From: Selaginella moellendorffii
Taxonomy: Eukaryota > Plantae > Lycopodiophyta
Reading direction: 5' to 3'
Assembly (NCBI RefSeq): GCF_000143415.4
Contig: NW_003314315.1
Span: 186,001-250,000, forward strand
DNA length: 64,000 nucleotides
In this document: positions 11,280 through 46,790 of the stretch, one piece after another
How the letters are laid out: each line of letters begins with the position of its first letter
How positions within the stretch are numbered: the stretch's first letter is position 1
Program-made: the position numbers and the translations under genes
The notes under the pieces: model-generated
Databases searched by the model: none
What the model was told of the DNA's origin: nothing
The model's input: the letters and a program-made list of their open reading frames with translations, nothing else

Positions 11280-13100
11280 TAGCATGTGCTATTAGATATT
11301 GATTGCAACTTACTAATATATGGAGGAAATAAAATCTTATGGTCAACAAATAAAAACTATATTTTCAATCTTCTTATAGTCTCAAAGCACAACTAATACC
11401 TTTATTAAATGTCTCTTACAATGAAAACGTTATTTGGGCTTTCAATAACTTATTATAAATAAGTTTTTTTTAACCTTCATGTTTAAGCATAAAAGAATTT
11501 AATATTTAATTTATGACTTCGATATGAGATGTTTAAAAGAAATCACTATAAGGATTAAGTTAGTTTTCAAAAAACATAAACTCATATATATTCTATTAAA
11601 CCATAACTATTATTTCTCAAGATATATCACTATAACTATTTCATCGTGATAATTAATATGTCTAAATTTCTGATAACAAAGGAACTTCATGTAAGGAAAT
11701 TAAATTTGTGATTATAAAGTAAATCAATAAAAGACATCTAAATATAACCTCCAAGCTTATAAATTATATTACTTTGAATATAATTATATTGATAATAATG
11801 ATCTCCTTGAAAATTTGGTGTTTGTTGTTCTTTTTCCTTTAATCTTAAGTTTGGAGAGTTTAAAAAAAAACATTGCATTTTGGAATAATAAATATATAAA
11901 TTTTTAATATGGTGTTATGAGGTCCAAGTGTACAACTACGGTGCCATATATTATTACTAAGATAGTGGGATTTTGGTAAGTATCAGATTAGGACCACTTG
12001 CTCTTATATATAAGTTAGGGTGTTTGGACTAATTGAATGTTGTATCCATGCACTCACAGATATAAGATAAATAAAATAATATGGTAAGAATGTAATAAAT
12101 TTTATTGGTAAGAACTTTATAACATTAAAAAATTTCACACTATAAATTTCTTAAGGTTGCCACTTGAATTGAAAATATAAAACCTGATTTATAATTCTAT
12201 GCTTAAATCCTATATATTCAAGCTATAAAAAATAAAAAATCATGTTAATTATGAAAACCTATAGAATATAGTGCCTCCTTCCTTAACATTAAAATAAGCA
12301 TAATAACTCTAAATACGAGCTCCTTATAGTTGAAAAAGAAAGAGAAGGTAATGAAGAAAACTTAAAAGTAAGAAAAAGATGACACTAAAAGTTTATGTTC
12401 AACACACACACACACACATATGTGTTATTTGTTATAATTTTTGGGATATTGAGCATTAGAAGATATATAGAATAAATAGTTCTCAATTACACATTTTTAA
12501 ATTGGTTTAAATAGCATTAATATGGGAATAAACTGGATAATTTACCTTCAAGTATTATACATTTCTAACTTTATACTATAATTATACCTATTAAACATTC
12601 ATGGTGTATCCATTGTTGAGATTTAAATATACAATTATAGCAGATATAAAAGTAAAGTACAATAATAATGTGTTTATTGAAATTTGTTAATATTCTTAGT
12701 ATAATTAATTCAATTAGTAGAAATAGATTAAGTTTGATTAAGAAAATTCTTTTGTAAGGTTTTGCTATAAATTATTTATGATTATATGATGGTAGATACA
12801 AATACTTAAAAAGATAATTTTAATCTAAGATATACTAAAGCTCTTTATAAAGAAGTTCTTTTACATCATATTAATAGTTATCATAGGGAAACACTTATTA
12901 AATATAATCTAGTTAATTCACCTTTAACACCTAGAACTATATTATTTTTGTGCTATAGTTTGTATTTGTTGTGGAAAATGTTTCTTTTTGTTTTTAACTT
13001 ATAAAAAATAATAGTTGCTATGTGATTTTGAATAGGAAGTTTGAAACTAAGATTTTATACTGATACATACATATGCTAGAATATGCTAGTATTTCAGTAA
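11280..13100. other. AT-rich, CpG-poor island with no ORFs; probable decayed repeat or TE. Includes (AC)n at ~12401-12419
   Basis: Abrupt compositional change. The ORF track has no ORF >=60 aa between 11285 and 13179. Confidence 0.55.
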
Positions 13101-13178
13101 AGTTATGTTACGTGGAAGAATGGAGGTCGTCTATTTGCTATCGTGCTGTGTGTGTTGGGCGAAGAGGTGTAGGTCGCC

Positions 13179-17546: not shown

Positions 17547-19487
17547 ATGAGCCAGAGGTTTTCTCCACAGGTGGATGCGTTTGCCCGCGCTCTCAAGAGC
17601 TGTGCTTTGGCCAGGGATCTCTCCAGGGGCAAGAAGCTCCACTCGCAAATCCTCGCAAGCCCACACAACTATGACAGATACCTCGGGAATCTCCTCGTGG
17701 ACATGTACGGCAAATGCGGCTGCCTGGAGAACGCGCGATCCACATTCGATGCCATCGTCGATCCCAATGTATATTCCTGGAATCTTATCCTGGGCGCGTA
17801 CATCCAATGCGGTGGGTTCGCAGACGTGGCGGGGTGCTTCGATTCCATGCCCAAGAGGGACGTGGTATCGTGGAACGCGATTCTCGCGGCATATACCGCG
17901 ACTGGGCATCTGGAAGATGCTATAAGAGTCTTTGAGGGAATGCCGCAGAGGGACGTGGTGTCGTGGAACTCGCTGCTAAATCTGTACGGGCAGAATGGCG
18001 ATGCCGTCCTGGCCAAATCTATGTACGATAGCATGCCCGAGAGGGACATAATCTCCATGAACGCCATGGGTCAAGCATATGCCCAGGCCGGGCATTACAA
18101 AAGTGCTAAAGATGCCTTTGATCGAATGCCACACCACAGCGTTGTGTCCTGGAACGCTATGATTAAAGTCTACACAATGGCCGGCGACACTACACTGGCT
18201 CTCCAGGCTTTCAATGATATGAAGCAAAGGGACGTGCTTTCGTGGACGGCTTTGCTCTCAGCATATGCCCTGGCTGGGCATCTGGAGGAATCTCGCTCCT
18301 TGTTTGAGAAGATGCCACAGCGGGATCTGGTGTCGTGGAACGCTATCGCGCAGGCTCATGCCCTCGGCGGCCAAGTCGAACGGGCGACGCGAATATTCTC
18401 GGACATGCCCGATCGAGATGCCATTTCGTGGACCGCAATCATCCAGGCATATGGACGGACTGGGAGCCCGGATAGATCCAAGCATTACTTTGATTCCATG
18501 CCTAGAAAGGACGTACTGTCCTGGGTGGCCTTGCTCCAAGCATATTCCCAGGCGGGAGTCCTTGACACTGCCAGTAGATTGTTTGAGTTGGTGCCAGTGA
18601 GGGATGGAGCAGCACACAATGCGATGCTCCAGGCATATGCCAACACTGGGAATCTGGAAGATACTAGGAGGATCTTCCACGCAATGCCCCAGCGAGACAT
18701 CGTTGCCTGGAATCTGGTGATCCAGGCATATTCTCAGTCGGGTAGCGCACCGGGTGCCCAAATGGTACACGAGAAGATGCCCGCGTGGGACGTGGTGTCG
18801 TGGACGTGTACGATGGCCACCCACGCGCAGTACGGCAGATTCCAGGACGCCAAGGGAATGTTCGAGGAGATGCCCGAGCGGAATATCGTGTCGTGGACGG
18901 CTATGATTCACGCGTACGTCCAGGCGGGGAATGTCCACCAGGCCCGGGCCATGTTTGACGACTTGCAAGGGAAAGATTCCATCTCGTGGAACACTATGAT
19001 CCAATCGTGTGCCGCGAATGGCCAATGGGAGAGTGTGCTGGAGCTCTCCCATTTGATGGTCTTGGACGGCCATAGACCCAACGAGTTGACCTTTGTGGGG
19101 ATCTTGACCGGGTGTAGCCACGTCGGCATGCTCGAGGAGAGCCGGTCCCATTTCCTGGCCATGCAAGACGCGTACGGACTGGCCCCCATTGTTGACCACT
19201 ACTGCTGCATGGTGGACATTTTGGGCCGCGCAAAGCAGCTGAAGGAGGCCGAGGAGCTTATCGACACAATGCCGTGCGTTCCGTACCCCGTGGTGTGGAC
19301 CATCTTGTTAGGAGCGTGTAGGATCCATGGTGACGTGGTGAGGGCCGCGAGGGCTGCTGACATGGCGGTGGCGATGGATGCCAGCCAGGAGGAGTCCGCG
19401 CCCTACATTCTCATGTCCAGTGTGTATGCCGAGGCCGGGAGGAAGGCCATGTCATTGGCACGTGGCAGGGAGAAAGAAGCCAGCTAG
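17547..19487 (+). CDS. PLS-class PPR protein, mostly tandem 31-aa S-type motifs, E domain, no DYW
   Basis: Repeated 'MPxRDVVSWNA..AYA..G'. C-terminal TFVGILTGCSHVG..DHYCCMVDILGRA..WTILLGACRIHGD..APYILMSSVY. Intronless, 646 aa. Confidence 0.93.
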   Translation: MSQRFSPQVDAFARALKSCALARDLSRGKKLHSQILASPHNYDRYLGNLLVDMYGKCGCLENARSTFDAIVDPNVYSWNLILGAYIQCGGFADVAGCFDSMPKRDVVSWNAILAAYTATGHLEDAIRVFEGMPQRDVVSWNSLLNLYGQNGDAVLAKSMYDSMPERDIISMNAMGQAYAQAGHYKSAKDAFDRMPHHSVVSWNAMIKVYTMAGDTTLALQAFNDMKQRDVLSWTALLSAYALAGHLEESRSLFEKMPQRDLVSWNAIAQAHALGGQVERATRIFSDMPDRDAISWTAIIQAYGRTGSPDRSKHYFDSMPRKDVLSWVALLQAYSQAGVLDTASRLFELVPVRDGAAHNAMLQAYANTGNLEDTRRIFHAMPQRDIVAWNLVIQAYSQSGSAPGAQMVHEKMPAWDVVSWTCTMATHAQYGRFQDAKGMFEEMPERNIVSWTAMIHAYVQAGNVHQARAMFDDLQGKDSISWNTMIQSCAANGQWESVLELSHLMVLDGHRPNELTFVGILTGCSHVGMLEESRSHFLAMQDAYGLAPIVDHYCCMVDILGRAKQLKEAEELIDTMPCVPYPVVWTILLGACRIHGDVVRAARAADMAVAMDASQEESAPYILMSSVYAEAGRKAMSLARGREKEAS

Positions 19488-23700: not shown

Positions 23701-24956
23701 CTTTACTGGACAATACTTTACTTGATTGCATGCAGTTTTGTAAAATCAATATTCGAGCTGACACGGCACGACGATATAGAGGTACATAGAAGCTACCATA
23801 CTGTCAAAGAGTTGATCATGTTAATGTTAATGCAGGTTCAACAAATCTCCCGCCGGTTCCAAAAGAACTGGTTACCTAACATGTTTGACTTACTCGCGAA
23901 TGAGAAGTGTTCCGAGAGCCCAAAATTCTGGGGTCCAGAGAGGTAAGTCACCCTGGCATTCGTAGCGCAAATTCCGACTCCGTGGTTTGTTTTACAGGTT
24001 TTCACAGAAAAGAGAACTTTTCCGTTCGTCGAAGCCGGAAGAAAAGCCCAGGAGACCNNNNNNNNNNNNNNNNNNNNNNNNNNNNNNNNNNNNNNNNNNN
24101 NNNNNNNNNNNNNNNNNNNNNNNNNNNNNNNNNNNNNNNNNNNNNNNNNNNNNNNNNGCTGTTCAGAAACGACAGCAACGATGCCGAGGGGAAGAACTCA
24201 ACCTCGGAACAAGTCCGCAAGAGAAGAAGGCGGATGAGCCGGTGGGACGAGCTCCCTTCCACTCAGGATCCCGTGCCTGCTTTGACGTCTTCGACGCCCT
24301 CGACGTCAACTCCGTCAACCCAGCACTCTTCCAGTCCTCTCCAAGAGCAGGCTCTGGCTCCCGCTCTCATCGACGAGACAGTCACCGAGTTTGATCGGGC
24401 CGAGCCGCCTGGGTACTCTTCGACGTCCCCACACAGCAATAGATACGAGCAGCCGAGGAGCTTGTCGCAGCAGCACAGCCAGCAGCACTACGATCACTGC
24501 AGCAGCAGCAGCCATCACCAGCAGTACCAGTCTAGAGGGGATCACTGGAACGCTGCCCCTCCTTTCCGTCCTCCACATCGTCCGGAAGCTGGGAATGGCT
24601 ACATGGGAAGACACCAGCACCACTCACAGCAGGGACAGGGATACCATTATCACAGTGAGATGCCACCGAGGGCCTCGCAACACTCTTCTCCCTCGGGTCC
24701 ATATCTTCCTGGAATGCCGCCGCACCAGCAGCACCACCACCACCACAACCAAGCTCCAAAGTACCAAAACCATCACCATCATCCACAACCAGTCCGGCCA
24801 CCGCTCAACGGGTGCTACAACAATGGCGCTCATCACTTTGGACCGCCGCCTCACTATCGAGGCACGGGTGGCTACTATCCGGCACAGCAGCAGCAGGAAA
24901 ACTCTTACCACCATCACCAGCAAGCGGATGAAGAGCCACCCGTGCCAGGTCTGTGA
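20769..24956 (+). CDS. ASHH2: Histone H3K36 methyltransferase ASHH2/SDG8/EFS-like (CW, AWS, SET, post-SET); spans an assembly gap
   Basis: CW: [27 protein letters not shown]: [29 protein letters not shown]: [34 protein letters not shown]. Post-SET: [13 protein letters not shown]. The C-terminus is His/Gln/Pro-rich. Confidence 0.9.
24058..24157. other. Assembly gap (100 N) inside ASHH2
   Basis: Run of N. Confidence 1.
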
Positions 24957-27284
24957 GTGGAAGCTCTCGATTTGTTACATTTTTTTTTTTGCTGGATTCT
25001 ACTTACACATGATCACCAAGGCTGGCAGTTTGATTACCGTTTGTTTAGTCTTCGGGAAGAAAAGCAAAAATTTCTTCTGGATCGGTCCAGGAATAAGAAT
25101 TCGCAACTGTAACACAAACACATTCAAGAAAGAAGCCGAGTCTCTGTTTATTAAGTAGTTACCTTTTTTTGTTTGTATATAACTCGTGACTGTCGTGGTG
25201 AGCTCCTGGGGATTGCTGTGGCTGTTCTTGAGCGTACAGGAGAAACCACCACACCATGGTGTTGATCATGAGAGACCAATGTGAAACATAACACCATGGT
25301 TATGCCAAGCAAATTAGATATTTCTTCTTTTTTTTTATCTCTTTTTCTTTTATGCTTTTTTCTGTTTTTTTTTTTCTAGACTGGTTGAACTTGAAACAAA
25401 TTAAATCTAATGTATAATTTATTAATCTTCCTATGGGAATGTTTCTTACACAAAAATGAAAAATTGCACCAACTAGAAGAAAAATTGTGTAGGAAAGGAA
25501 GTCCAAAATTATTGTATAGAGGGTTTAAATATTGAATCCTTCATATGATTAAAGATCATTGCCATATAGTATTTAGTGCAAGAAATTTTTTTATATAAAA
25601 TACAATATTTAGTGTAAGACCTTTAGAGCCAAAATAAATGATATTTATTACCACTTTAGATATTATCATTTGTGGTTGCTCTGTAGTTTGTGTAGCAATT
25701 GCTATGACCTGTGTAGTTGCTTTGATTAGTTTTACTACATGGCAATCATAAACTATGGCTACTATGCTTTGTAAATAATTTGTATCCCAAACCCCATTCC
25801 TGTAAATTCTATTACCACTACTATTAGTAGCCACTGAAATTTTTTAATTAAAGATGACTACTATTTATATTTTACAACTTGCATTTTAGCAGTTTCATGA
25901 TGATTAAAGAACAAATATAGTTGTAAGTGCTAGTATAATTATTTCTTTATTAACTTTTACAATATGTTTTCTTTTTCTTTTTTTGTTTTATGTTTTTTTT
26001 ACTTTTTTCTTTTTTATTTTTTATTGAGATAACTTTAAAAAGGCCAATTGAACCGGAATCAAATCAAGTGTATATTTTACCAGTGCTCATGTAGGAATAC
26101 CTTTTAAATGAGAGTGAAAAATTTTACTTACTAAAAGCAACATCGTGTGGAAAAGAAGTTTAGAAGCATTGTATGAAGGGCCAAAATACACACTTATTGT
26201 ATAATAAAAAATTCTCACCATATCAATGTTTATTGTAATACCTCTAGTGCTAAAGAAATGATATCAATTGGTTGTGCCACCACTTTAGGTATCATCATTT
26301 GTGTTTGCCTTATAGCTTATGTAGCAATTGTTTTTGTTGCTTCTGTTGCATAAACTTGAGCACAATCATAAACTATAGCTACTATACTTTATGAATTATT
26401 TGTCTCTCAAACCCTATACCTGTTAAATATAGAAATTTGGCCACCACTGCCATTAATAGCCATTGAATTTTTTTAACCAATGGTGACTACCATTTATATT
26501 TCACCACATGTATTTTAGTATTTTATGATGATTAGAGAATAAGTGCAATTGTAAGCACTAGTGTAAGTTTTTCTTGATTTTTGTTTACTTTTTTGAAATT
26601 TTTACTTTTTTAAATTATTTTTATTTTTGTTTCTTTTAGATTGGTTGAGATAACTTTTGGAAGGCCGATTGAACTGGAAAAAAATTAAATATATAATTTG
26701 TTAGTGTTTCTATAAGAATGCCTCCTATACAAGAGTGAAAAATTTTATTTACTAAAATTATCGTTATGTAGAAAGAAAGTCCAAGAGCATTGCATGGAAA
26801 GCTAAATAACTTGACCCCCTATATGATTGTAAATCCTTACCATATGGTATATGTTGTGAAAATTTTAGTGCCAAAAGAAATTACATCAACTAGTTGTGCC
26901 ACCACTTTAGGTATCACCACTTGTGTCTGCCTTATAGTCTATATAACAACTATTTTTGCTGTTTTTACTACACAAATTTGACCATAATCATAAACTATGT
27001 TTACCATACTTTGTAAATTGTTTGTTTCTCAAACCCTATACTTATTATATATAGAAATTTGGCCATCACTACCACTAGTAGTTGTTGAAGCTTTTTAACT
27101 AATGGTGACCACTACTTATATTTCACCACATGTATTTTAGTAATTTTATGATGATTATAGAATAAGTGCAGTTGTAAGTGCTAAACTAATTTTTTCTTGA
27201 TTTTCTTTTACATATGTTTTGCTTTTTCTTTTTTACTTTTTCACAATTTTTACTTTTTTTCATTACTTTTTTTTTTGTTTCTTC

Positions 27285-28660
27285 TAGATTGGTTGAGATA
27301 ACTTTTGGAAAGCTAATTAAAATGGAAAAAAATCAAATATATAATTTGCCGGTGTTTATATAGGAATATTTCCTACACGAGAGTGAAAAATTTTATTTAC
27401 TAAAAGTAGTGTCATGTAGAAAGGAAGTTCAAGAGTATTTCATGGAAGGCTAAATAACTTGACCTTTTATATGATTGCGGATCATCATTATATGTTACCT
27501 ATTGTAAGAATTCTAGTGCCAAAAAAATGATATCGATTAGTTGTGCCATAATTTTAGGTATCACCACTTATAGCTGCTTTGCTAGCTGTGCAATAACTGT
27601 TACAACTTATGTAATTGATTTTGATGTTTTTATTATAAAGAGTTTAGTGTGATTACAAATTGTGGCTACAACCATCTATATCCCAAACTCCGTACTTATT
27701 AAATATAGTAAAATTAGACAATGTATTATTAATATTTTAGTACCAATTCAAGTTGTCGTAAATCTTTAAAATTAGGTAGTGTAATCAATCCTAAGCCATA
27801 AAATGTAAATAATGTGATCCCTTGGAAGTTGCAATTTCAAAGATCACCACTAGAAAATATCCATCATTAAGAAGGTTTTTATTTGATTGTCCAATGGCAC
27901 GAAAAACAACATATAGTATTAAGATGTATCAAGAAGTTCATATTTATAACCATTCCAATATAAACATATTATTACATCATAAGTTAGCTATCAATATACA
28001 CTATAGCATTTTTATGAAGACGTTCAAAAAACTTTCTTAAAATGATTTCTTTTTCAATCCACTCTATATTAAAGTTATTCTTTTCTACCCACCTTGCAAA
28101 AACAATATTTAAAAATGTTTTCCCAATTTTCTTCTCAGCTATTGTTATTCTCTTATTTGAATAATTGATTTTATTTGTATCTTTCTAGCATTTGATCAAG
28201 AGTTTAGCTATTACTTTTCAATTTATCACCACATATCCTACTAACAGCATAGGTATGAGAAACTAAGGAGGTGAAAACAAGAAGTGAGGATAAAAGATAA
28301 AGAAAGATTAAATGTCCTAAAGATGAGCTTTAGTTTAATGATACCTAGTTGATTAATGCTTTAATCACTATTTAAAACTTTCCAAATAAAAACCTAAAAC
28401 ACAAGAAGAGGATATGAAGTTATATGATATTTAAATTATTTTGTTTTTGTAGTGATTATTGATCACTTGATTCAATCATTTTTCCCATGACTATATTATA
28501 TATATACTTTAGCTAAGCACCATCAATAGTACTATCATTACAAAAGTTTATTAGTCAAGAAACTCTACCACTAGTACTATCAATATCTATTTAATTTTTT
28601 TAACCAATAGTGACCACCACCCATGTTTCACCACCACTATTTTAGTAGTTTTATGATTAT
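27285..28660 (-). pseudogene. Most complete decayed copy of the island's unknown intronless ORF (~450 codons)
   Basis: Comparing copies and reverting TAA/TAG/TGA to CAA/CAG/CGA/TGG gives a mostly continuous frame, e.g. ..LIPMLLGGDVVIDWRVVAKLWIK..VEWIEGEIILREF..GVWDT..LQSMVATVYDHAQ..QVVIPEVVAQP. Hand reconstruction. Confidence 0.5.
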
Positions 28661-31600
28661 TATAAAACAAATTATAAACAAATAAGTTATACAAACCAAA
28701 TTGCTAGTTGATCTTTTTCCTTTCTTTCTTTTAAACATTTTTTTTCTATATTTTCTTTTTTACATTTTTAATTTTTATACCTTTTTCTTTATAATTTTGC
28801 TTCTTTTTTTTTTTCTTCTAATTAAGACAACTTTCAAAAGGCCAATTGAATCAAAAATAAATCAAGTATATAATTTGCTAGTGTTTCTATGGGAATGCTT
28901 TTTACACGAAAGTTGAAAACTTTTACTCTAGAAGCAATATTGTGTTAAAAGAAAATATAAAAACATTGCATGGAAGGCCAAAATACCTAATTCCTAGTTT
29001 TTTGCTATATGGTAGTTAATGTGAGACTTACAGTGCCAAAAGAAATGATATCAATTGGTTATACTAGCAATTTAGGTATTATCACTTTGGAAGCTTATGA
29101 ATTTTGTTGTACTAAGATTTTAACTATCACTACTGTGGAAACTTAAAGGGCACATTGTTATTCATGAATTGTTTCCTTTTATATTTAAACTATGATAAAA
29201 GGTAATAGTAACAACTTTCTCGAGAGCCTTGCTTTTGACACCCTTAGGTTTAGCTTAGCTGGAACATATTGGACTACCATATATCAATCTCAATATATAA
29301 TATGGTGTGATTCCCCCAACTAACTAACAGAGTCAAACCTGAAATTACTCCAATATCAAATATAATCTAAACTTCTTGAGAGGTTACCCAACTTAATACT
29401 GTTCAAACCCAATTTTGCTTAACTCCAAATATCCCAAAATCCTTAACTTATTAAAATCTTTCATTTATAAATTCTTTCCCTCTGTCTTTCAAGTCGTTCC
29501 TTTTAGTTATTAACACACTTGTGGCTGTTATAGTAGTCATACTTTATGATCATGTTCAAGTGCGTATAAGAAAAGTAGCAAGAGTAGCTGTACAGGTTGC
29601 AACAACTATTGCATAGGTAGTATGCTTTATAAATCATCTATATCATAAATCCTGTGATAAAATTAAACAATGTATTACTAGTATTTTAGTATCTATTCAA
29701 GTAGACATAAATCTCTTAATTTAGATAGCATAATTTAATAAAATAATTCTAACCCAAATCACATAATCCCCTTAAATTGTAATTTCAAATACCACTACTA
29801 GGAACTTTCCATCATTAAGAAGGGTCTTGTTTAGAATATTTGATTGTCCAATGACACGAACAACAATATATAATATTGAGATGTTTTATGTGTTATGACA
29901 CTTTATGTCCATAGCCGTTCCAATGCAAATAAAAGATCTTTTTTATATCATGGCTACTAGTGTATATTATGACAATTCCATGAGGATGTTAAAAGAACTC
30001 TCTTAAAATAATCTCCCCTCAAGTCCACTCCAAATAAAATTTATTCTTTTCTACCCACTTTGCAAAATCAATGCTTAAAGATTTTCTTCCATCTTCTTTT
30101 CAACCATTGTCATCCTTTCTCTAAATTATTGATTTTATCTATATCTTTTTAGAGTTTAATTAAGAGCTTGGCCACTACTTTCTAATCTATCACCACATCT
30201 CCTAATAGCAGTATATGTATGAAAAACCAAGGAAGCAAAAGTAAAAAGTAAGGATAAAGAAAAAGCAAATGTCCCAAATATGAATTTTAGTTTAGTGATG
30301 TTTAGTCAAATAGTGTTTTAGTCACTATCTACAACTTTCTAGACAAAATCCAAGAACACAATAAGAGGATGTAAAATTGTTATATGATATTCAAATTTTT
30401 TGTTTCTGTAATGATTTTTAATCACTTGGTCTAATCATTTTTCCCATGACTATTTCATATATATAAAAACCCTAATGAATTGTCTCTCAATTTGTTTCTT
30501 TTGGTTGCTTATACATTTGTGGTTGGCATACTACTTATGCAGTAGCTGTATACAATTGTTCTTGCTATTTTTGTTATATGCATTTGACTGTGATTATAAA
30601 TTGTAGCTACCATGCTTTATAAACTATTTATGTGTTAAACTCCATATCTATTAAATATGGTAAGATTAGACAATTTATTGTAATACCTATTAAAATCTAT
30701 ATAAATCTCTAAACTTAAGTGGTGTAATCCAATGAGATAATCCTAAACCCTAGAATGCAAATCACCTAATCTCTCGAAAGTTGTAGGTTAAAAGACTACT
30801 ACTAAAACTATCTACCATTGGGAAGGTTCCTATTTAGAATGTTTAACTATCTAATAGTACAAATAAACAATATATAGTATCGAGATGTTTCATATATTAT
30901 GGAACTTCATATCTATAGTCATTTTAATACAAACAAAAGCTCCTTATTGCATCATAAGTTGGCTACCAATATACACTATAGCATCTCTATAAAGATGTTA
31001 AGGGAATTTTTTCAAAATGATTTCCTTTTCAATCCACTCCACATTGAAGTTATTTTTTTCTACCCACCTTATAAGAGCAATGCTTAAAGATTTTCTCCCA
31101 ATCCTCTTTCCAACGATTGTCATCCTTTCCTTTAAATTATTAATATTATCTACATCTTTCTAGAGTTTGATTTAGAGCTTGGCCACTACTCTCCAATCTA
31201 TCACTATATCTCCTCCTAACAGTATGATTATGAGAAACTAAAGAAGTGAAAACAAAAAATAAAGATAGAGGTGTGAAATTGTTATATGATATTTTACGTT
31301 TTCATTTTCATAATGATTATCGATTGCTTGGTTCAACTTAACCACCATTACCACTAATAGCAATTTAATCTTTTTAACCAATAGTGACCACCATTCGTAT
31401 TTCACCACCACTATTTTAGTAGCTTTATGATTATTAAAAAACAAGAAACATTTTTTCTTTGTTTTCATTTTTACATTTTTACTTTTATACTTTTTTTGTA
31501 ATTTTGCTTCTTTTTTTTTTCTAGATTGGTTGAGACAACTTTCAAAAGGCTAATTAAACTAAAAATAAATCAAATATATAGTTTGTTAGTGTTTCTGTGA

Positions 31601-33489
31601 GAATATTTTTTATACGAAAGTGAAGAACTTCTACATGCCAAAAGCAATATTGTATTAAAAGGAAATTTAGGAGCATTTCATAAAGGGTAAAAATACAAAA
31701 AATCCTAGTATGATTGGGGACCTTGCCATATGGTATTTAGTGTGAGACTTACAATGCCAAAAAAAAATGATATTGATTAGTTGTGCTAGCATTTCAAATA
31801 TTACCACTTTGGAAGCTTTTGAATTTGAATTTTTTAGGAGGTCACCCAACCCACTACTACTTAAACCCAAAAATACTTAACCCTAAATATCCCAAAATCT
31901 TTAAGTAATTAGAAAAAAGGGTGCACTTTTATTTGAACCCCAATAAAACGTAAGAGTTACAGCTCTACCAGAAACCTTGCTTTTGACACCTTACCCTTGA
32001 GATATAGCCTGGCTGGAGCATACTAGACTGTTATATGTCAATCTCAATATGTGGTGTGGTGTGATTCCTCTAACCAACTAATAAAGTCCAACAAAAAACT
32101 ATTCAAATGCTAAATATAAATTTTTGAATTTGGACTTTTTGGGAACCCAATATTACTCAAACCCAATAATCTTTAACTCCAAATATCCTAAGACCCTTCA
32201 TAAGCCTTTTCTTTTTATATTTGAATTTTAATGAATTGTCTTTTGAGTTATTTCTTTTGGTTGCTTATGGCTGCTATATTGTTTATATAATATTTATTGC
32301 AACTTGAACAGTTGCTCTTGCTACTTTTGCTACATGCACTTGAGTATGATTATAAATTGTGACTACTATGCTTTTTAAATTATCTATATCCAAAAACCCC
32401 ATGATAAAATTAGACAATGTATTGCCTATATTTTAGTACTTATTCAAGCTAATGCAAATCTCTAAACTTAGGCAATATAATCCAATGAAATAATTCTAAG
32501 CTATAAAATGTAAATCACTTGATCCCTCAAAAGTTGCAATTTTAAAGACCACCACTAGAAACTATTTATCATTAGGAAGGTTCTTATTTAGAATGTTTGA
32601 TTGTTCAATAGCATGAACAATAACATCTAGTATTAAAATGTCTTATGTGTTATAGAACTTCATATTTATAACCATTCTAATGTAAACAAAAGCTCTCTAT
32701 TGCATCATAAATTTATTACTAATGTATACTGTAATACCTTTATAAGGACATTAAAAAAACTCTCTCAAAATGATCTCCCCTTCAATCCATTCTATATAAA
32801 CTTTATTCTTTTCTTCCCATCTTGCAAATACAATATTTGAAAATATTTTTCCAATCCTTTTTTCAGCCATCATTATCCTCTCCTCGAAACATCAATTTTA
32901 TCTGCATCTTTCTAGAGTTTTATTTGAAACATGGCCACTACTCTCCAATCTATCACCACATCTTCTCCTAGAAGTATGGGTAAAAGAAATCAAAACAGTG
33001 AAAATAAAAAGTGAAAATGGAAGCTTAAATGTCTCAAAGATGAGCTTTAGTCTAGTGATGCCTAGCTAATTAACATTTCAATCAATATTTAGAACTTTCC
33101 AAATAAAAACCAAAAACATAGGAAAAGGATGTAAAATTGTTACCTAATATTTAAAATTTTCATTTCTATAGTGATTATCAATCACTCAGTCTAGCTTATC
33201 TCATGTATATACTTCAACCTAGCACTACCATAGTATTATTGCTACAAAATATTATTAGTTGAGAAATTCCACCACCACTACTAGTAGTAACTATTGAAGC
33301 TTTTTAATTAATAGTGACCACCACCCATATTTCACCATCAATATTTGAGCAAATTCATGATGATCAAAGAACAAATAAAGTTGTAAGCAAAAAAGTTACA
33401 CAAACTAAATCACTAGTCATTTTTTTTCCTTTTTCACTTTTAAAATTGTTTTTCTTTGTTTTTTTGCTTTTTTCTTTCTATACTATTTT

Positions 33490-34130
33490 AGTTATCAAAG
33501 TTTTTGTTGATGAGGGATGACTAGCTTACATCATCATCTTGTCTAGACTCCTTTAAATGTCTTTTGGTGTCCTAGGCCCATACCAAGGATGTAGAGAGAG
33601 CTATTGTGGTGTCAAGTTCAATCAGAGAGCTAGATATTGTCTTTTAAAACTTGCTCTCCATACTCTTGCTCAAAAGAGGCTAAGCAAGTGCTACAAACAT
33701 TGCTTTATGGACATTGCCTCTCATTGCTTATGCTCAACAAGGGGATATTGACTAGTCCTATCTTCACTTTTATACCCAAACTCAACTAAATTGCTATGTT
33801 CATTGCATCTCCTCATCAAAACCAAGTTCATCATTTTTTTAATACCCAAATGGAATAAAGTCTTCTAGAATGCTCTCTTCTTAACTCATGCTCACTATGC
33901 CTTGTAGCTCACAACATCACATAACACACATGAAATAAGTCAAGCACTCCTATCATTGAGCTCTAGAATGTGAGATCCACCAATGTCATCGTATTGAAGA
34001 CCATAAAAAAGCCATTCCACTAAATCAACAATTTTTAAGTTGTCTTATGGCATATTTTCATCAATCTTTCATCCAGATTCTTAATATGTATAACTAGAAA
34101 AAGTTATTTCACATGTACATAGATTTACTT
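33490..34130 (+). pseudogene. Decayed PPR gene fragment homologous to the PPR at 38424-40142, in opposite orientation
   Basis: 33561-33673 (cttttggtgtcctaggccca..gagagagctattgtggtgtcaag..) aligns to the reverse complement of 39138-39251. Further blocks (aaacattgcttt, ggatattgactagtc, ctcatgctcac, ttcatccagattctt) match in order with small deletions. Confidence 0.85.
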
Positions 34131-37100
34131 ATGACTTGTTTGTCTAACCTTAGTGATTACTAAATAATTCCCCTTCTACTTCATTTAAAACCAAAGAGAC
34201 CAACTTAGCTTTCTCATATTTTCTTTTTCACGATTCTCACTTCTTTACTATGCTCAATGATATTCACTCTCAAGCAATTGCAACTCTTATGACTTATGAC
34301 CGATAAAGTTTTGATTCCTTCGCTTCAAACTTGCATTCCTTAGTTTCCTTTTTTACTTCTTATTTTTGCTTCTTTGTTTTTTCATATCTATTCTTTTAGG
34401 AGGAGATATAGTGATTGATTGGAGAACTGTAGCCAAGCCTTGGATTAAGTTTTAGAAAGATGTAAACAAAATCAATAATTTAAAGGAGAGGATAACAATG
34501 GTTAAAAATGGGATTGGGAGAACATCTTTAAGTGTTACTTTTGTAAGGTGTACGGAAAAGAATAAGTTTTATATAGAGTGGATCAAAGGAGAGATCATTT
34601 TGAGAGAGTTTTTCAACATCCTTAAGGAAATGTCATAGTGTATATTAGTAGCTAATTTCTAATATAATAGGGAGCTCTTCTTTGGGCTAGAATGGTTATA
34701 AATATGAAATTTCGTAATACATGAGATATTTAAATACCATATATTGTTATTTGTGTCATCGGATAATCAAACATTTTAAATAAGAACCTTCCTAATGATG
34801 GATAGTTTTTAGTAGTGGTCTTTGAAATTGCAACTTCTAAGGGATTAGGTAATTTATATTTTATAGCTTAGGATTATTTTATTGGATTACACTGCCTAAG
34901 TTTAAAAATTTATATTGGCTTGAATAAGTACTAAAATATAGGTAATACATTGTCTAATTTTACTATGGGATTTGGGACATAGATGATTTACAAATGGTAA
35001 CTATAATTTATAATTGTACTCAACTACATATAGCAAAAGTAGCAAAAATAGCAAAAGTAGCATATGGTGAGGATCCCCAATCATACGAGGAGTTGGGTAC
35101 TTTGGCCCTCCATACGACACTCTTAAATTTCCTTTCTATGTGATGTTATTTTTAGCAGGTAAAAAGTTTTCATTCTTATATAAAAGATATTCCCACAAAA
35201 ATACCAACAAACTATATACTTGATTTATTTTTGGTTCAATTGGCTTTCTGAAAGTTATCTCAAGCAATCTAAAATAAACCAATAAAAAAGGAAAATAACA
35301 AAAAAGTATAAGAAGCAAAAAATTAGAAAAATAAAGAAAAAAAAGAGAAAAAGACAAAAAGGAAGACTACCCATATAAGATGAAATTGCTAAAATAGTGA
35401 TGGTGAAATATAAATGGTGGTCACTATTGGTTAAAAAAAATTAAATAGTTACTAATGGTGAGCTTTTGTAGCAATAGTACTATTAGTAGTGATTGACTAG
35501 AGTATATACATAAGATAGTCATGGGAAAAGTGATTAGACCAAGCAACTAATAATCACTATAGAAATAAAAACTAAAAATATCAAGTAACAATCTCATATC
35601 CTCTTCCTTTATTCTTGGTTTTCATTTAGAAATTTCTAAATAATGACTATTCTTACTTCTTGTTTTCGCTTCCTTGGTTTCTTATACCCGTGCTACTATG
35701 AGGAAATGTGGTGATAAATTGGAGAATAGTGGCTAAACTTTAGATCAAGTTATAGAAAGATGTAGATAATATTAATGATTTAAGAGAGGACTAAAAAGAG
35801 GATTGGGAGAAGATTTTCAAACATTGCTTTTACAAGGTGGATAGAAAAGAAATAACTTTAATGTGGAGTGGATTGGAAGTGAAATCATTTTGAGAGAGTT
35901 CTCCTAACATCTTCATGGAGAGGCCATGATATACATTGATAGCCAACTTATGATGCAATAGAGAGCTTTTATTTATGTTGGAACAATTATAAAATTCCAT
36001 AACATATAAAACATCTCGATACTATATATTTTTGTTTATGTTATTCGACAGTCAAACATTCTAAATATGAATCTTCTCAATAATAGATAGTTACTAGTGG
36101 TGGTTTTTTAATATGCAACTTTCAAGAGAATTATAATACATTGTCTAATTTTACCATATTTAATAAGTATGAAATTTAACACATAAATAGTTTATAAAGT
36201 ATGGTAGCTATAATTTATAATCAAGCTCAACTCCATGTAGTAAGAGCACCTATACAGATTGTAGCAATTACTACATAGGCAGTAAGTGATGATACTTGAA
36301 GTGGTGGTATAACCAATTAATATTATATTTTTTGGCAATGGAATTTTCACATCAAATACCATGTGGTGAGAATCCTCAATCATAAGAAGGGTTAGGTATT
36401 TTAACCCTTCATACAACAGTTATAGACTTCCTTTTTACATAATATTATTTGTAGTAGGTAAAACTTTTTATTTGTATAGGAGGCATTCTTGCAGAAGCAC
36501 CAGAAAACTATACACTTGATTTATTTCCAGCTCAATTAGTTTTCTAGAAGTTATCTCAACCAGTCTAGAAAACAAAAATCAAAAAATCAAAAATCAAAAA
36601 AATCAAAAAAGTAAAAAAGGTTTAAAATAGAAATAAAAAAAAAGTTGGATTAATGATTGTTCTCTATTTATAACTCTATTTGTTCTTTAATCATTATGAA
36701 ACTGCTAGAATATAAATGGTGCAATACAAATAGTTGTCACTATTGGTTAAAAAACTTTAAAGGCCACCAATGGTAGTGGTGGTAAAGTATATCAACTAAT
36801 GAATTTTTAAAGGGATGGTATTGTTAGTGGTGTTTGGTTGGAGTATATACATGAGATAAGTAATCTTAAAACACATGATTGGATAGAGTGATCGATAATC
36901 ACTACAAAAGTGAAAACTTTAAATATCAAATAACAACTTCACATCTTTTTCCTGTATTCTTGGTTTTCATTTAGAAATTTCTAACTAGTAACTAAAATAA
37001 TGATCAACTTGCTATTCTAAGGTTATATTTACTCTTTCTTTACATTCCTCCCTCACTTCTTGTTTTTACTTCTTTGGTTTTTTATACCCATATTTCTAGG

Positions 37101-38423
37101 AGGAGGTATGGTGATAGATTAAAGAGCAATGGCTAAACTTTATATCAAGTTCTAGAAAAATGTAAATAAAATTGATGATTTCAAGGAGAAGATGACAATG
37201 GTTGAAAATGGGATTAGGAGAATATCTTCCAAGTGTTACTTTTGTGAGGTGTGCAAAAAAGAACAAGTTTCATATAAAGTGGATTTGATGGTAATTAATC
37301 TTATGAGCAATTATCATACTTTTGAAATTGTATATTTTTGCTACTTTACTTATAGATTCTATATTCATTTTAGTCATACTTTCTAATTTTATCGACAATA
37401 TCTTCAGTGACTCTCTTGTGATTTTCCTCATCTACAATAAATTCTTCAAGCTTATAAAACTTAAGCTTATATGAATATTAAAATATTTTTATCTCACTCT
37501 TATTGTCAACTCTAGTGCACCACATAATATGTTGTTAAGCATTGGATTTACCTTATGAATATAAACATTTTTTGCCTATAAAGATTGTCTTTTATAGTGA
37601 TAATTTTGCATATCTTTTATTCAAGGGATCAATAAGTTTTTTCTTAAGTTAGTGAATTGAAGTATTTAACTTTTTGATGGAAATTTACATTGGTTTATTA
37701 TGTTGTTACAACCCAAAAGATTACTAACAATTAATAAATGACTATTAGTTTAAGACAGTGGATAGAGTGCTATAAGTTGTGATATCTTAAGTTTAGGAAC
37801 CACATAGTAAGTATAGTAAGTATTTGGGGAAGTTGTGTGCAAAAATATTAAAAAATTCTTTTGCACAACCAATAAGCTTAAAGAAGAAATATATTCTATT
37901 GATTGTTTTTTTTTCACACCTTAAGCATAACAAATTATAATCATAATTAGTCTTGACTGCATTCAGTTTGATTCTTGATTAATGCCAATTGTGTCCAGCT
38001 GAAGGCCTAGTCAATGAAAATGGCTATAGTTATTTTAATCCAAAACCATAATTTTAACCCTAAAATTTACACAAAAGTGGTCTCAAGGGAGATCATTTTG
38101 AAAAAGTTCTTTCAACATCCTTAGGGAGATATCATAGTGTATATTGATAATTAATTTTGATGCAGTAGAGAGCTCTTCTTTGGGCTGGAATGTTTGTAAT
38201 ATGAAATTCTATGATACATGAGATATATAGATACCAAGTGCTATTGGACAATTAAACATTCAAAATGAAAACCTTTTCAATGATAGATAGTTTCTAGTTA
38301 TACATTTGATTTATTTCTCGTTTAATTTACCTTCTGGAAGTTATCTAAACCAAAACAAAAATTAAGAGAAGAAAGTAGTACCATTGTACAAGGAAGCCAG
38401 AAATAAAAACTCATTTATCCAAG

Positions 38424-40142
38424 CTACACATACATCCTAGCAGCATCCTTATGGTTTCTACATGCCACTAGCAGGCAAGTCCACTCAAGTGAATCAGCCA
38501 CAAACGGCATGGTATTGATCAAGTCTTCAGCATCTCCCAGCCTGCCTGATCGTCCCAGGATATCGACCATGCAGCAGAAATGAGGCTTGGTGGGAGGCAC
38601 TCCATAATCCAGGCTTAAAGATGTGAAGCAATTCCTTCCAGCATAGAGGCCCCCACTGTGGTTACATGCATGAAGAATCCGGATGAAGCAAATCTCGTCA
38701 ACTCTCTCGGCAGTGGCAGCCATCAAGTGAAACAAATCGAGCACTGAGTTGGCTTGCCCGACCTGGGCGTAAGCTCCCAACATCGAGCTCCAGGACATGA
38801 GATCCAGTGATGGCATCGTGTTGAAGATCTTGTATGACACTGCGAGCTGTGAGGCGTGGTGAGCATGAGCTGAGAGAAGCGCATTCCAAGAGACTTGGTT
38901 CCACTCGGGCATCTGGTAGAAGACGAGCTTTGTCTCGACGAGGAGGCCATGCTGGGCATAGGCGACGAGCATCGCAGTCCAGGATACCAGGTCGAGCTCA
39001 GGTATGGAGGCGAAGATTGCTGCAGACTGGTCAATATGCCCGTGCTGGGCATAAGCAACGAGAAGAGACGTCCATGAAGCAATGTTTCTGTGCGGCATCT
39101 CGTCGAAGACCTGCTTGGCCTCCTCAACACGAGCAGACTGAGCGAGAGCGTGGAGAAGTGAGTTCCAGGAGACGATGTCCTGCTCTCTCATCAAGCTTGA
39201 CACCACAATGGCTCTCTCGGCGTCCCCAGCCTGGGCATAGGACACCAAGAGGGTGTTCCAGGAGAAGAGATTGTGTTCAGGCATCTCAGTGGTGAAAAAG
39301 GTGAGAGCAGCATCGAAGTCCAAGAGCTGGAGGAGCCCAGACAAGATGATGTTGTACGTGATCAAGCTAGTCTCTTTCATCGATGAGAGCTCCTCCCTGG
39401 CTCTCTCCAGTCGACCACTCTGGGCAAGGGAAGAGAGCACCGCATTCTTTGCGACAGCGTCCCACTCGGGCATCATCAGGCACAGAGCTTCCATGGCAGG
39501 CAAGTCGATATCGTCCCTCTGGAGCAAGATCGCTAACAGAGTTGTCCAGGAGACGAGGTCCCGGAGCGGCATGAGATCGAAGACGTGCATGGCCTTCTCG
39601 ACATGCCCGGCTTGGGCATATGCAGCCAGCATGGTGTTCCAAGACACAATGTTCCTCCAAGGCATCCGATCAAACACAAGTAGAGCGCCGGATATCTGCC
39701 CAGTAGCGGCGTGTGCATGGAGGAGCAAGTTCCAGGATGCCGTATCCCAGGCGGGCATCTGATCAAAGATAGACTGTGCTTGATCCAGATGCCCGGCGTG
39801 GGCATATGCACCGGCTATAGTTGTCCAGGAGATAATGTCGTGATCGGGCATGGAGTGGAAGATCTGGGTGGCGTTTTGGAGTTGGCCGTGGTGGGCGTAG
39901 GCGGAGAGCATGAGCGCCCAGGTGAAGAAGTTTTTGGTGGCGGTGGTGTCGAAGATGTGGCGAGCGTGGTGGATTGCGCCGCAGCGAGCGTAGGCGTGGA
40001 GTAGTAAATTGGAGAGGTAGACATCGTTTTTGTTGCGATGGTGGTGGAGGAGACGAGAGTGTACGCTTGTGACTGCCGCGATGGTCTTGCATGAGTGGAG
40101 GTGTTTGGCCCATTCGTAATGGTTTGAAGGACTTTCGCCCAT
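38424..40142 (-). CDS. PLS-class PPR protein (S-motif array), 572 aa, E domain apparently truncated next to the island
   Basis: Repeated MPxxNIVSWNxLLxAYAQxG; CFIRILHACNHSG..HFCCMVDILGRSG..WTCLLVACRNHKDAARMYV*. Confidence 0.88.
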   Translation of the reverse strand: MGESPSNHYEWAKHLHSCKTIAAVTSVHSRLLHHHRNKNDVYLSNLLLHAYARCGAIHHARHIFDTTATKNFFTWALMLSAYAHHGQLQNATQIFHSMPDHDIISWTTIAGAYAHAGHLDQAQSIFDQMPAWDTASWNLLLHAHAATGQISGALLVFDRMPWRNIVSWNTMLAAYAQAGHVEKAMHVFDLMPLRDLVSWTTLLAILLQRDDIDLPAMEALCLMMPEWDAVAKNAVLSSLAQSGRLERAREELSSMKETSLITYNIILSGLLQLLDFDAALTFFTTEMPEHNLFSWNTLLVSYAQAGDAERAIVVSSLMREQDIVSWNSLLHALAQSARVEEAKQVFDEMPHRNIASWTSLLVAYAQHGHIDQSAAIFASIPELDLVSWTAMLVAYAQHGLLVETKLVFYQMPEWNQVSWNALLSAHAHHASQLAVSYKIFNTMPSLDLMSWSSMLGAYAQVGQANSVLDLFHLMAATAERVDEICFIRILHACNHSGGLYAGRNCFTSLSLDYGVPPTKPHFCCMVDILGRSGRLGDAEDLINTMPFVADSLEWTCLLVACRNHKDAARMYV

Positions 40143-40299: not shown

Positions 40300-41438
40300 T
40301 CACTTGGAGTTTGACGATCGCCCAAGCAGCCTCCTGACGTTGAGCAGCACTAGAACGCTCAAGAGCCTGACCGGGACGAAGAACACGCACTCGAGCAAGG
40401 TGGTGACGATCGATTCGGAAGGAAGCAAGCCTCTGGACAGCATCACAAGGACACCTCCAACTCTCCTGGTGGCGACGATGTACTCGCCCGCTTTGATCGC
40501 CTCCACCGTCCTGGCTGCCACGTCCGCCGGGGACTCCGTGTCCCTGGGATCGTAGTGGCACACGGATTTGAGCGTCTCGAGAACCTGTTGATCAGTGGTC
40601 GCTGCCATGAGCGAGCACTCAAGTCAGCTACTTTCCCGACAAGATCTTTGTGTGCTCACCATCGCCGAGCAGTGCCGTGTCGGTGAATCCCGGACAGATC
40701 AAGCTCACCCGGATGTTGTGAGGCAGCAGCTCCAGTCGCAGCGTTTCCGCCAGGCCTCGCAGCGCGTACTTTGTAGCCGCGTAGATGTTCGCACCGTAGA
40801 GTGTGTACTGTTGAAACGCACGTAAGTTTCATGACCCAAAAGAAAGAAAAAGATGATTTTGGTCACCATTCCAGCCAGTGATCCGATGAGCACGATGGAT
40901 TTTCCATGGCTGCTCTTGCTCTGCTCCTGCTTCATGTGTGGAAGAGCGGCATGAACCGAGTACGCGCAGCCCAGGAGATTTGTTCTCACCACTTGATCTA
41001 TGTCCTCGGCTCGGCATTCCCCAAAGAGTCCAGATCTCACCAGGCCGGCGTTGCACACGAGAACGTCGATCGGCCTCCACCTTGATGCCTGCTCGATCAC
41101 TCGCTTGGTTGCGGCAAAATCTCCCACGTCCAGTTCCTGGAGACCACCAAAGTTTCAAGACGCTTGTGAACAAAAAGTTTTACCTCCGCGACGATTTGCG
41201 TGGGGCTGCAAACGCATTCTTTGAGAAGCGACTCCTTGGCAGCGGCCAGCCTCGCCTTGTTGCGAGCGACGATTGTCACAGACGCACCCTGGATGAGGGC
41301 CCGTTTGGCGATTTCATAGCCGATGCCGCTCGAGCCTCCAGTCACAAATACGTGCTTGTTCATCAGAGACTCCATCACCTTCGTCTTCCTCCTGCACAAG
41401 GCAGCAAGGAGTATGACTCCCACGACAAGAAATAGCAT
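40300..41438 (-). CDS. TSC10: 3-dehydrosphinganine (3-ketodihydrosphingosine) reductase, SDR family, 4 exons
   Basis: N-terminal anchor, HVFVTGGSSGIG, VTIVARN, IDVLVCNAG, catalytic YAATKYALRGLAETLRLEL, LICPGFTDT, hydrophobic C-terminus. Includes a 47-nt intron at 41137-41183. Confidence 0.85.
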
Positions 41439-41952: not shown

Positions 41953-43470
41953 TCACTTCAGTGACAATCCCTTGAGCTCTTCCTCCAGGCCATCCTCGCC
42001 ATCCTCATTGCCATCTTCCTCATCGCCGCCTGCTTCCTCGTCGTTGTCTTCCAGCGGTCCGAGAACTGAGATCCCCACTCCGCTCTTGAGCACGCTCCGG
42101 ACTTCGTCCAATCCAAAGCTGGAGATGCGGTTGCCATCGATGCCGAGAAGCTTGAATCCTGGTTTCCCAGCCACTGCCTCCGCCGCAGCCAGCGCGCCAA
42201 CCCGGCTCAGTGAGTTGGAGCTCAGATCAAGCTCCTCCAGCTTTGAGCAGCTCGCTTTCACCGCCGCCGAGACCATCACAGCACCCTTGTCACCCAGCTC
42301 GTTCTCGGATAGATTCAACTTGGCCAGCTCCTTGTTCGCTGCAATGAAAGCCGCCAGCGCCTTGGCGGACGACTGCGTGATCTCGTTGTTTCCGAACTCG
42401 AGCACCTTGATACTCCGCGTCCCGCTTGCCAGCGCCTCGAGAACTGGCGTACTTCCAGCGTCCTCCAGGCTTAGATCGCTCAAGTAGACGTGCGTCAAGC
42501 CGCCATGTTGCCGCAAAGCCTTCCCAAGCGCAACACCACCTCCAGGACCATACATGTTGTCTCTCAAGTCGAGAACTTTGAGCTTGGATCCACCAGCGAT
42601 GGCCGAAGCCAGTGCCACCGCGCCTTCCTCCCCGACTCTAGTCGACGAGAAGCGGAAGTTCTCGAGCTGGATAGCCTTCTCGACGAGCTTCGCGAGAGAT
42701 CTGGCTCCTTGATCACCGGTCATGTTGTTGTGGAAGTGCAAGAGCTTGAGAGAGCTTCCAGTGGTGACGATGTCGCATATAGCACGAGCAGCCTCCTTGG
42801 AGATCCCATTGTTCATGAAGGAGAGCTCCTCGAGGGATTCCTGGGACTTTAGCAGCGGCGCAAAGGCCCTCACACCCTTCTCCCCGAGAGCATTGTCCGA
42901 GAGGTTTAGCGAGCGGAGCTTGCTCCCTTCCAATGCCAGCGCGAGTGTACGCATCACCTCCAGCGCCTCGTCCTCTGGCCGCCCAGCAACAATGTCCGAG
43001 AAATCCACGTCCTGTAGCGAGGATTTCACCTTCGAGAGAAATCTTCCCGCGACCACAGCAGCGTCCCTGCCGAAGCTCTTGTTGCTGAAGCAAATCCTGG
43101 AGTAGCGCGACGTCTCCAGCGGCAACAAGAGCTCCTCCGCGAGCTCCTTGGTGAGGAAAGCTCTCTGCCCGGCCGAAATATCGAAGCACTGTTCATCTTT
43201 TACAGTACCTGCCATCGCGAATCCCAGCGCTTCCAGCATCATCCGGCTCGCCTCTCGAGCATAGATCTTCACCGCCGCCACGGGATCCCCGCCATCGCCG
43301 GAGCTTGCTACCTGGAATGCGGACTCTTCGATCCTGGATCCCAGCTCCTTCGCATCGCCGTCGATCGGCGCCTTCCAAAAGAATGCCAGCGACGTGAGAT
43401 TCGTGGCGACGAGCTGCGCCGTCGCGTCTCGCTTCGGGGGCCAATCCGCTACCACCGACGCCGCCGCCAT
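41953..43470 (-). CDS. RANGAP: Ran GTPase-activating protein (WPP domain, LRRs, acidic tail), intronless
   Basis: DWPP..LVATNL, FDISAGQRAFL, ICFSNKSFG, DFSDIVAGRPEDEAL, LNLSDNALGEKGVRAF, HFHNNMTGD, C-terminal EDNDEE acidic stretch. Confidence 0.95.
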   Translation of the reverse strand: MAAASVVADWPPKRDATAQLVATNLTSLAFFWKAPIDGDAKELGSRIEESAFQVASSGDGGDPVAAVKIYAREASRMMLEALGFAMAGTVKDEQCFDISAGQRAFLTKELAEELLLPLETSRYSRICFSNKSFGRDAAVVAGRFLSKVKSSLQDVDFSDIVAGRPEDEALEVMRTLALALEGSKLRSLNLSDNALGEKGVRAFAPLLKSQESLEELSFMNNGISKEAARAICDIVTTGSSLKLLHFHNNMTGDQGARSLAKLVEKAIQLENFRFSSTRVGEEGAVALASAIAGGSKLKVLDLRDNMYGPGGGVALGKALRQHGGLTHVYLSDLSLEDAGSTPVLEALASGTRSIKVLEFGNNEITQSSAKALAAFIAANKELAKLNLSENELGDKGAVMVSAAVKASCSKLEELDLSSNSLSRVGALAAAEAVAGKPGFKLLGIDGNRISSFGLDEVRSVLKSGVGISVLGPLEDNDEEAGGDEEDGNEDGEDGLEEELKGLSLK

Positions 43471-43642
43471 TTCAAATCCAAGAACCCTAGTCCTCTGTTT
43501 TTAGGGCTCCAGCAGGTTTAAATAAACCCTAAATGCAGATTCTTATTCGTTGAAAGATTTTTGCTTCCTTTTTTTTCTTTTATTTCTTGAGTTATACAAA
43601 ATAATACAAGATTTATTTCAATGATGTTATGAGATAAATGGC

Positions 43643-45593: not shown

Positions 45594-46790
45594 GGATGGA
45601 TCGAGAAAATCATTGTCCGAAGAATATAAAACTTGAGAACCGTGATGATCACTTGGAGTTTGACGATCGCCCAAGCAGCCTCCAGCACTAGAACCAAGTT
45701 TTGATCGCCTCCACCGCCCTGGCCGGACTCCTGTCTCTGTGATGGTAGTGGCACACGGACTTCCCAGCACGGGAGGAATATTTTGAGTCAGCTACTTGCC
45801 CGACAATATCTTTTTGCTTACCATCGTGTAGCAGTGCCGTGTCGGCGAATCTAGGACAGTTCAAGCTCACCCGGATGTCGTAGCTCAGTGTTTGCGCCAG
45901 GCCTCGAAACGTGTACTTTGTAGCCGCGTAGCTGTTAGCAGCGTCTAGTTACGAGCGACGATTGTCACAAACGCACAGAGACGATGACGCTCCAGTCACA
46001 CAACTACGTGCTTGTTCATCAGAGACCCCTGAACAAAACAGCAAGAACTATGAATCCCTAGAAAAGAATGGAATGCTTGTCAGAACCAAGACCAACAGAA
46101 AAGAGTAAGAACTCGCAAAAATGGAACTTTACGTGAGCAAGAACAACCAACCAAGCGTACAGTGCAAGCTCACCTAATAGGAAAAAAGCCATCGACATCT
46201 TCCATCAATCTTTGTTCTTGGCAGCACGATACCTCGAGTGTTCAAAGAAGTTTTCCATGAGAGATACAGCCAAAACCACAGCTCAACAATATCGATTGAC
46301 TTGTCGTTTGGGCAGAGGCCGAGCGTTTGGTCAGCTCCTGTAATAGAAACTGCACAATGGAAAGCTCAGGTTAAGCTGACAACCGAGTACACCACATCTC
46401 ACACACCTCTGAAGCTGATCAGGAGCTTTGCTCGTTGACAAAGAGAAATCACGCTTTGAGTTGGATGTCAAAGTTTCGCTACTCTCTTGATGCGTGAAAC
46501 GCAAAAATTCCTGTTCATCATCCCACTGCATCAGTACGTCCAAACAGTTCTCTTTACCGTATGAAGCTTAACGCTAAGTGTTTTCCAGTCCCTGCTCTCC
46601 AGTTCTTCCCGTGGCTGCTGCAGTGCTGCTACCAACACACACACAATTAAACAAATCTAAAAGTGTCAAGTACAGTGCCTTCTTACCTGTGAAGGATCGA
46701 GAATCGCACACACTGTCTTTTTCTCCTCTGGATCCCTGTGATTGTCGTAGAATGTCCTGGATGTTGGTAGTAGGGAGGCCTGATTGCCAT
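45594..46790 (-). pseudogene. Deleted duplicate of the TSC10/KDSR gene plus its upstream region (source ~40236-41890)
   Basis: Colinear matches: gatcacttggagtttgacgatcgcccaagcagcctcc; tcagctactt..agcagtgccgtgtcgg..caagctcacccggatg (intron retained); gcgacgattgtcaca; gtgcttgttcatcagagac; gttttccag..ctctccagttcttc; gattgtcgtagaat. Exon 2 is missing. Confidence 0.88.

Follow-up and report, generated by a model that had tools for sequence, protein, structure and literature searches.

The window analyzed here, a 64,000-nucleotide stretch of the Selaginella moellendorffii genome, contains an AT-rich island set among GC-richer genes. The GC content is 0.25–0.32 across the island (25.0–38.0 kb) compared to 0.42–0.60 in its flanks. 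The observed/expected (o/e) ratios of CpG and CHG are 0.04–0.28 and 0.20–0.47, against about 0.6–1.2 and 0.8–1.3, respectively, in the rest of the window. The surrounding DNA carries intact long host ORFs (3489–5678, 17547–19487, 41953–43500, 52257–56102, 56212–57999 and 60241–63750), which by eye we take to be carotenoid-dioxygenase-like, three PPR, RanGAP-like and LRR receptor kinase genes. Two 100-N assembly gaps are present (1652–1751 and 24058–24157), the latter within the gene left of the island. Contigs from the public runs X1 and X2 match the island over 638 and 587 nt with 0 differences, evidence against these parts being an assembly artefact. No published description of the locus was found in the texts available to our literature search.

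Certain other repeats and AT-rich tracts are seen in the window. A second, intergenic AT-rich island (11250–13150, GC 0.23–0.30) is without similarity to the array described below and, X-read in six frames, matched no Pfam family credibly; CpG o/e is not low (0.80–0.87) in the 2-kb bins overlapping it, which take in GC-rich flanks. A direct repeat pair lies outside the main island (40622–40797 and 45786–45944, 176 bp, 79% identical), and a 9-bp direct repeat, with its copies 38 bp apart, lies just beyond the left end of the array (25250–25300).

The main island is repetitive: of the 61 self-matches of at least 120 nt in the window, 52 are island-versus-island, with 66–79% identity. Alignment resolved ten partial or full units (u1–u10) of 0.62–1.95 kb, seven on the minus strand (25.3–33.4 kb) and three on the plus strand (34.3–38.4 kb). 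A full unit has the order C, upstream module U, B, A and A-rich tract. The features, with the bounds of u5–u7 and the other units taken from the alignment, are as follows:

25310–25935, minus: u7, short unit (C joined to late B, A, A-rich tail)
25935–26565, minus: u6, short unit
26565–27190, minus: u5, short unit, with 139 in-frame codons of late B and A at 26636–27052
27190–28690, minus: u4, long unit (C, U, B, A, A-rich), without the TRIM-like insert
28690–30470, minus: u3, long unit without C, with a TRIM-like insert and a ~80-bp inversion (29530–29610)
29088–29515, minus: TRIM-like insert in u3, with a primer-binding-like site after the 5′ repeat
30465–31450, minus: u2, truncated, with C, part of U, B and then the 5′ end of the TRIM-like insert
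30470–30513, minus: TRIM-like insert in u2, 5′ end alone, running from 30513 downward
31450–33400, minus: u1, most complete unit
31810–32268, minus: TRIM-like insert in u1, with two ~150-bp terminal direct repeats
33497–34186, plus: decayed duplicate of the 3′ half of the neighboring PPR gene (matches 39393 to 38578)
33497–38380, no strand assigned: inverted block of ~4.9 kb; flipping it restores a normal unit-to-unit junction
34330–35370, plus: u8, long unit, 5′-truncated
35370–36670, plus: u9, long unit with internal deletions, without the TRIM-like insert
36670–37290, plus: u10, 5′ part (C, U, early B)
37290–38080, no strand assigned: unrelated AT-rich insert of ~790 bp, splitting u10
38080–38375, plus: u10, 3′ part (mid B, end of A, start of A-rich tail)
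38424–40070, minus: intact PPR gene from which the pseudo-fragment derives; 96% identical to its best match, a PPR protein of S. moellendorffii

The preliminary description had seen the island as an array of decayed copies of one once-coding sequence, and the self-matches, the alignment and the codon-position signal presented below bear this out. Some particulars are to be revised. Unit-derived DNA makes up ~11.4 of the 13.1 kb, the remainder being the PPR pseudo-fragment and the 790-bp insert, such that the array is not the whole island. The units are not uniformly ~1.5 kb: the long ones measure 1.0–1.95 kb, and three (u5–u7) are ~625-bp deletion derivatives, in which C is fused to late B in frame. 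The repetition of the modules holds, with each present 6–8 times rather than the ~8–9 first counted. Pairwise identity by module is mostly 66–87%, lower in late B, and the tree is roughly star-like, with u4/u5 and u2/u9 as the only strongly supported pairs. Between copies of module B, 2983 transitions were counted versus 1060 transversions.

Un-inverting 33497–38380 yields a 334-nt match of 73% identity that spans the breakpoint; in the assembled order, the alignment stops there. The un-inverted array is uniformly head-to-tail, and its last element, the PPR duplicate, adjoins the parent gene. Besides this inversion, two micro-inversions of ~80 bp were observed, the one in u3 and another within the PPR duplicate (33927–34002). 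The 790-bp insert matches nothing else in the window and no Pfam family credibly; one of its minus-strand frames loosely recalls, to our eye and without Pfam support, the zinc-finger region of a retroelement integrase.

A further insert of ~430–460 bp is common to u1, u2 and u3 at one site, with the empty site preserved in u4–u7 and u9. It has a 5-bp target duplication and ends of the TG...CA type. The terminal repeats in u1 are identical at 105 of 146 aligned bases (score 117 versus a shuffled maximum of 60), and the 3′ repeat in u3 is no longer detectably like the 5′ repeat (not above shuffles). In a scan with a primer-binding-site motif, the site directly after the 5′ repeat was the best in u3 and tied best in u1, the match being imperfect. 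Contigs from elsewhere in the genome were sampled at ~2–2.3 Mb per run, with a query covering 7 of the 13 kb of the island; all 14 of the partial matches listed fell on this insert and none on B or A, with 6 further pieces beyond the listing. Some of them reach the ends of the u1 insert, sharing the same terminus with different flanks and a richer G+C content, which suggests younger copies elsewhere. The available text of PMC4717578 describes TRIMs as elements of <1 kb with a 4–6-bp target duplication and gives eight S. moellendorffii subfamilies, the two count columns standing at 1,177 and 10,158 copies. The insert fits such an element. The divergence between its repeats is close to that among the units; thus, insertion and amplification appear to be of similar age.

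The PPR duplicate, which has an intact, GC-rich parent ORF next to it, serves to calibrate, from within the island, the mutation spectrum of one lycophyte's silenced DNA. Over 365 aligned bases, C>T changes were found at 39 of 117 sites and G>A at 36 of 90, compared to 8 of 85 for T>C and 2 of 73 for A>G. About 36% of C/G has changed, versus 6% for the reverse transitions. By context, the changes affect 19/42 CG, 17/34 CHG and 39/131 CHH sites, placing CG and CHG above CHH, and no preference for CpA was found in the duplicate (CA 22/58, CC 13/43, CG 19/42, CT 21/64). Together with the depletion of CG and CHG, this spectrum suggests that the decay likely stems from methylcytosine deamination on top of the usual C>T bias. 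In the portion of PMC5410703 available, S. moellendorffii is reported to possess a CMT and to have high mCHG.

We reconstructed the founder of the array column by column in a C/G-aware manner, with rates from this internal control; the copies were treated as a star tree, which is imperfect as u2/u9 and u4/u5 group. In the frame originally proposed, B and A (331 codons) show a bias of base by codon position (χ2 = 38.8, p = 8 × 10−7), compared to none in C and U (p = 0.28). A model trained on codon positions 1–2 of host genes agrees on this strand and frame for each half of B (P = 0.0002 and 0 of 5000 shuffles) and for A (P = 0.0066; all P ≤ 0.007), and the frame passes through B and A without a frameshift in the alignment. 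Stop depletion is not significant in the best of six frames (P = 0.42 for B and 0.09 for A), nor is the amino-acid composition of the reconstruction (P = 0.14 and 0.84). The codon-position signal establishes coding ancestry for ~330 codons: the ancestor of B and A coded for a protein.

This is less than the open consensus of ~450 codons first read from the island. The part in B and A stands, and the upstream module lacks codon signal in the proposed frame; further, the reconstruction is not open, as it retains 8 stops in 233 codons of B and 11 in 147 upstream codons, with 0 in the 94 codons of A. The longest frameshift-free run of the coding frame, stops included, lies in u1 and comprises 206 codons (32271–32888). 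In the proposed frame, the 76 codons that make up the second half of U include 6 stops and show no codon signal (P = 0.91). U ends in a pyrimidine-rich stretch and an AG before module B, and in 4 of 6 copies a GT in compatible phase lies upstream. From these features, U may hold an intron, although the +1 frame has just 1 stop in the 76 codons, and the description of the unit as intronless is unproven. In any case, the neighboring host genes include several single long ORFs (515–1281 codons), so that an intronless unit would be unremarkable at this locus. The A-rich tail, earlier read as a possible Lys-rich extension, has no coding signal in the same frame (P = 0.83). Read in antisense, the A-rich spacers of several units (27190–27290 and equivalents) contain a GTAAG resembling a splice donor, together with a T-rich tract and YAG; a gene antisense to the coding frame is not supported by codon signal. 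The reconstructed GC3 is 0.38 versus 0.71 in host genes, a value compatible with decay of the founder and also with a foreign or transposable-element origin.

The preliminary description had pointed to the stops being revertible through C>T or G>A, an observation without information since every stop codon begins with T. What is informative is their distribution. Six of the eight retained B stops are common to all or nearly all copies, their first base being T in 7/7, 5/6, 6/6, 5/6, 5/5 and 5/5 copies and C in none; at the control rates, each would have P = 0.002–0.019 had it arisen independently. Because these nonsense codons are shared, the founder was likely already dead before it multiplied. 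Likewise, TAG/CTA outnumber CAG/CTG by 24 to 8 across any frame of module B, and the CpG o/e of the reconstruction is 0.45; with the shared stops, these depletions point to a first round of decay preceding amplification. The copies then diverged neutrally: C>T/G>A changes relative to the reconstruction occur at 0.34, 0.35 and 0.33 of sites at codon positions 1, 2 and 3, and 23 deletions are frameshifting versus 11 in-frame. The weakest reading, that the copies were functional paralogues (or a giant repeat protein, or a gene in a code with TAR = Gln) dying singly after amplification, as the open ~450-codon consensus would imply, could draw on the unbroken frame through B and A, the in-frame junction of C to late B in the short units and the stop-poor upstream +1 frame, but is largely refuted and highly improbable given the shared stops, the lack of a third-position excess, the 2:1 ratio of frameshifting to in-frame deletions, the 11 upstream stops and, against recoding in particular, the loss of CAG/CTG in all frames of B and one stop being TGA.

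The earlier failure to recognize a family is upheld by our searches. With decayed copies as queries, no homologue of the unit protein was recovered in protein, family, PDB or viral searches: neither among 1.84 billion protein representatives nor in the host proteome was there a match, and viral contigs, phage records and PHROGs (best E = 0.09) returned none, as did predicted viral structures at E ≤ 0.001. No Rep-helicase, transposase or RT domain was found in the unit in the X-read frames scanned with Pfam, and no other viral-like genes were found in the island. Hence the viral and mobile-element origins raised earlier have gained no positive evidence from sequence, family or structure searches. 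The GC-rich intact source copy that had been envisaged was sought with a profile search and not found; in simulations, such a search recovers an intact source in 24/24, 23/24 or 18/24 trials, depending on founder decay. Structure modeling predicts, with low confidence, a β-meander followed by long helices. A ligand-binding role of the helix-grip type (START/VASt/PRELI-like) is rather doubtful: the match to START, VASt, PRELI and Bet v 1 structures has 7–8% identity and a Z-score in the range of common arrangements, was not reproduced by a second model and is accompanied by no Pfam match.

We favor, with a probability of roughly 0.6, the reading that the island descends from a dead copy of a lineage-specific Selaginella gene (~330 codons) that was multiplied locally in tandem and decayed neutrally by C>T/G>A changes. 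Of the three origins first suggested, a lineage-specific gene amplified and then silenced fits best, though the order looks reversed. The founder would have picked up nonsense codons, mostly at would-be CHG and CG sites. Repeated local duplication, probably by unequal crossing-over or replication slippage, would then have built the head-to-tail array and copied part of the adjoining PPR gene, its 3′ half, as well. The ancestor of u1–u3 would have received a TRIM-like retroelement, an internal deletion would have generated the short units, the 790-bp piece would have split u10, and the 4.9-kb inversion would have turned the right third of the array. Finally, the conversion of about a third of C and G to T and A would account for the AT-richness of the island, whose copies probably have no present function. 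The host-gene origin is reached by elimination, as no intact source was found.

The most serious competitor, if clearly less probable, is that the unit was the accessory ORF or cargo of an undescribed non-autonomous transposon (of Helitron, MULE or LTR-internal type); the element would have captured the PPR piece and become concatenated on site. Helitrons are known for tandem arrays and gene capture, and the low GC3, the lack of a host-proteome match and a founder already dead, as suits a non-autonomous master, would all agree with such an origin. Both tandem arrays and gene capture are also recorded for TRIMs in the available text of PMC4717578. However, although CTAG is present at the unit end, the preceding hairpin, tested on the reconstruction of decayed copies, is no more stable than shuffles (about half of which are equally stable) in either orientation; there is no transposase, RT or Rep match in the X-read frames scanned; and the contig matches from elsewhere, among those listed, lie on the TRIM-like insert and not on the unit. 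Further, the PPR piece comes from the next-door gene and stands in tandem with its parent after un-inversion. Since the duplication straddles the unit and this gene, which a fixed-end transposon does not predict, the array points to local tandem duplication and not to transposition or viral integration.

Improbable is a founder acquired horizontally from a virus (e.g., a giant DNA virus) or a microbe, silenced on arrival and duplicated locally. The low GC3 and the lack of a plant homologue would suit it, and the available portion of PMC4083422 reports that S. moellendorffii has multi-copy families which are NCLDV-like or were acquired horizontally, and that NCLDV-like regions of moss are methylated and silent. 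Against it stand the viral and protein searches, empty with decayed copies as queries, an island without other viral-like genes and the intron-like upstream module. It is similarly unlikely, if less so, that the array is the sole fossil of an undescribed mobile element or a horizontally acquired, possibly viral, gene, representing a ~330-residue family absent from the 1.8 billion representatives.

The array shows that decayed copies can still yield a protein without a detected living relative. A new family would be defined if an intact relative were found to reside in a mobile element or virus; if the fossil reading is true, the AT-rich islands of Selaginella would preserve extinct protein families readable only by the alignment of copies.

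Among known systems, the NCLDV-like insertions of moss and Selaginella, as described in the available text of PMC4083422, resemble the island in being silent-looking, AT-rich, multi-copy and of obscure function, but comprise clusters of different viral genes versus one repeated gene without a viral homologue here; comparison by description with the S. moellendorffii families in that text gave no link. Only the u1–u3 insert, with its TG...CA ends, 5-bp target duplication, dispersed relatives and, in u1, ~150-bp terminal repeats, resembles a TRIM; the likeness does not extend to the repeated unit. Fungal RIP makes duplicated DNA AT-rich by C>T, mutating both copies with a CpA preference. The island is likewise duplicated, AT-rich by C>T on both strands and set beside GC-rich genes; however, because its parent PPR gene is intact and the CpA preference is absent, the spectrum is not that of fungal-type RIP, which we rejected. 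Tandem pseudogene clusters in methylated plant heterochromatin consist of local head-to-tail copies with neutral decay and CG/CHG depletion. The island differs from them in having no detected living parent or family and a founder seemingly dead before amplification, and shares with them the head-to-tail copies, neutral decay, CG/CHG depletion, short deletions and nested retroelement insertions. Our verdict is a decayed pseudogene cluster of an orphan protein, in which the lost protein is unexplained and the process, duplication with neutral C>T decay, is ordinary.
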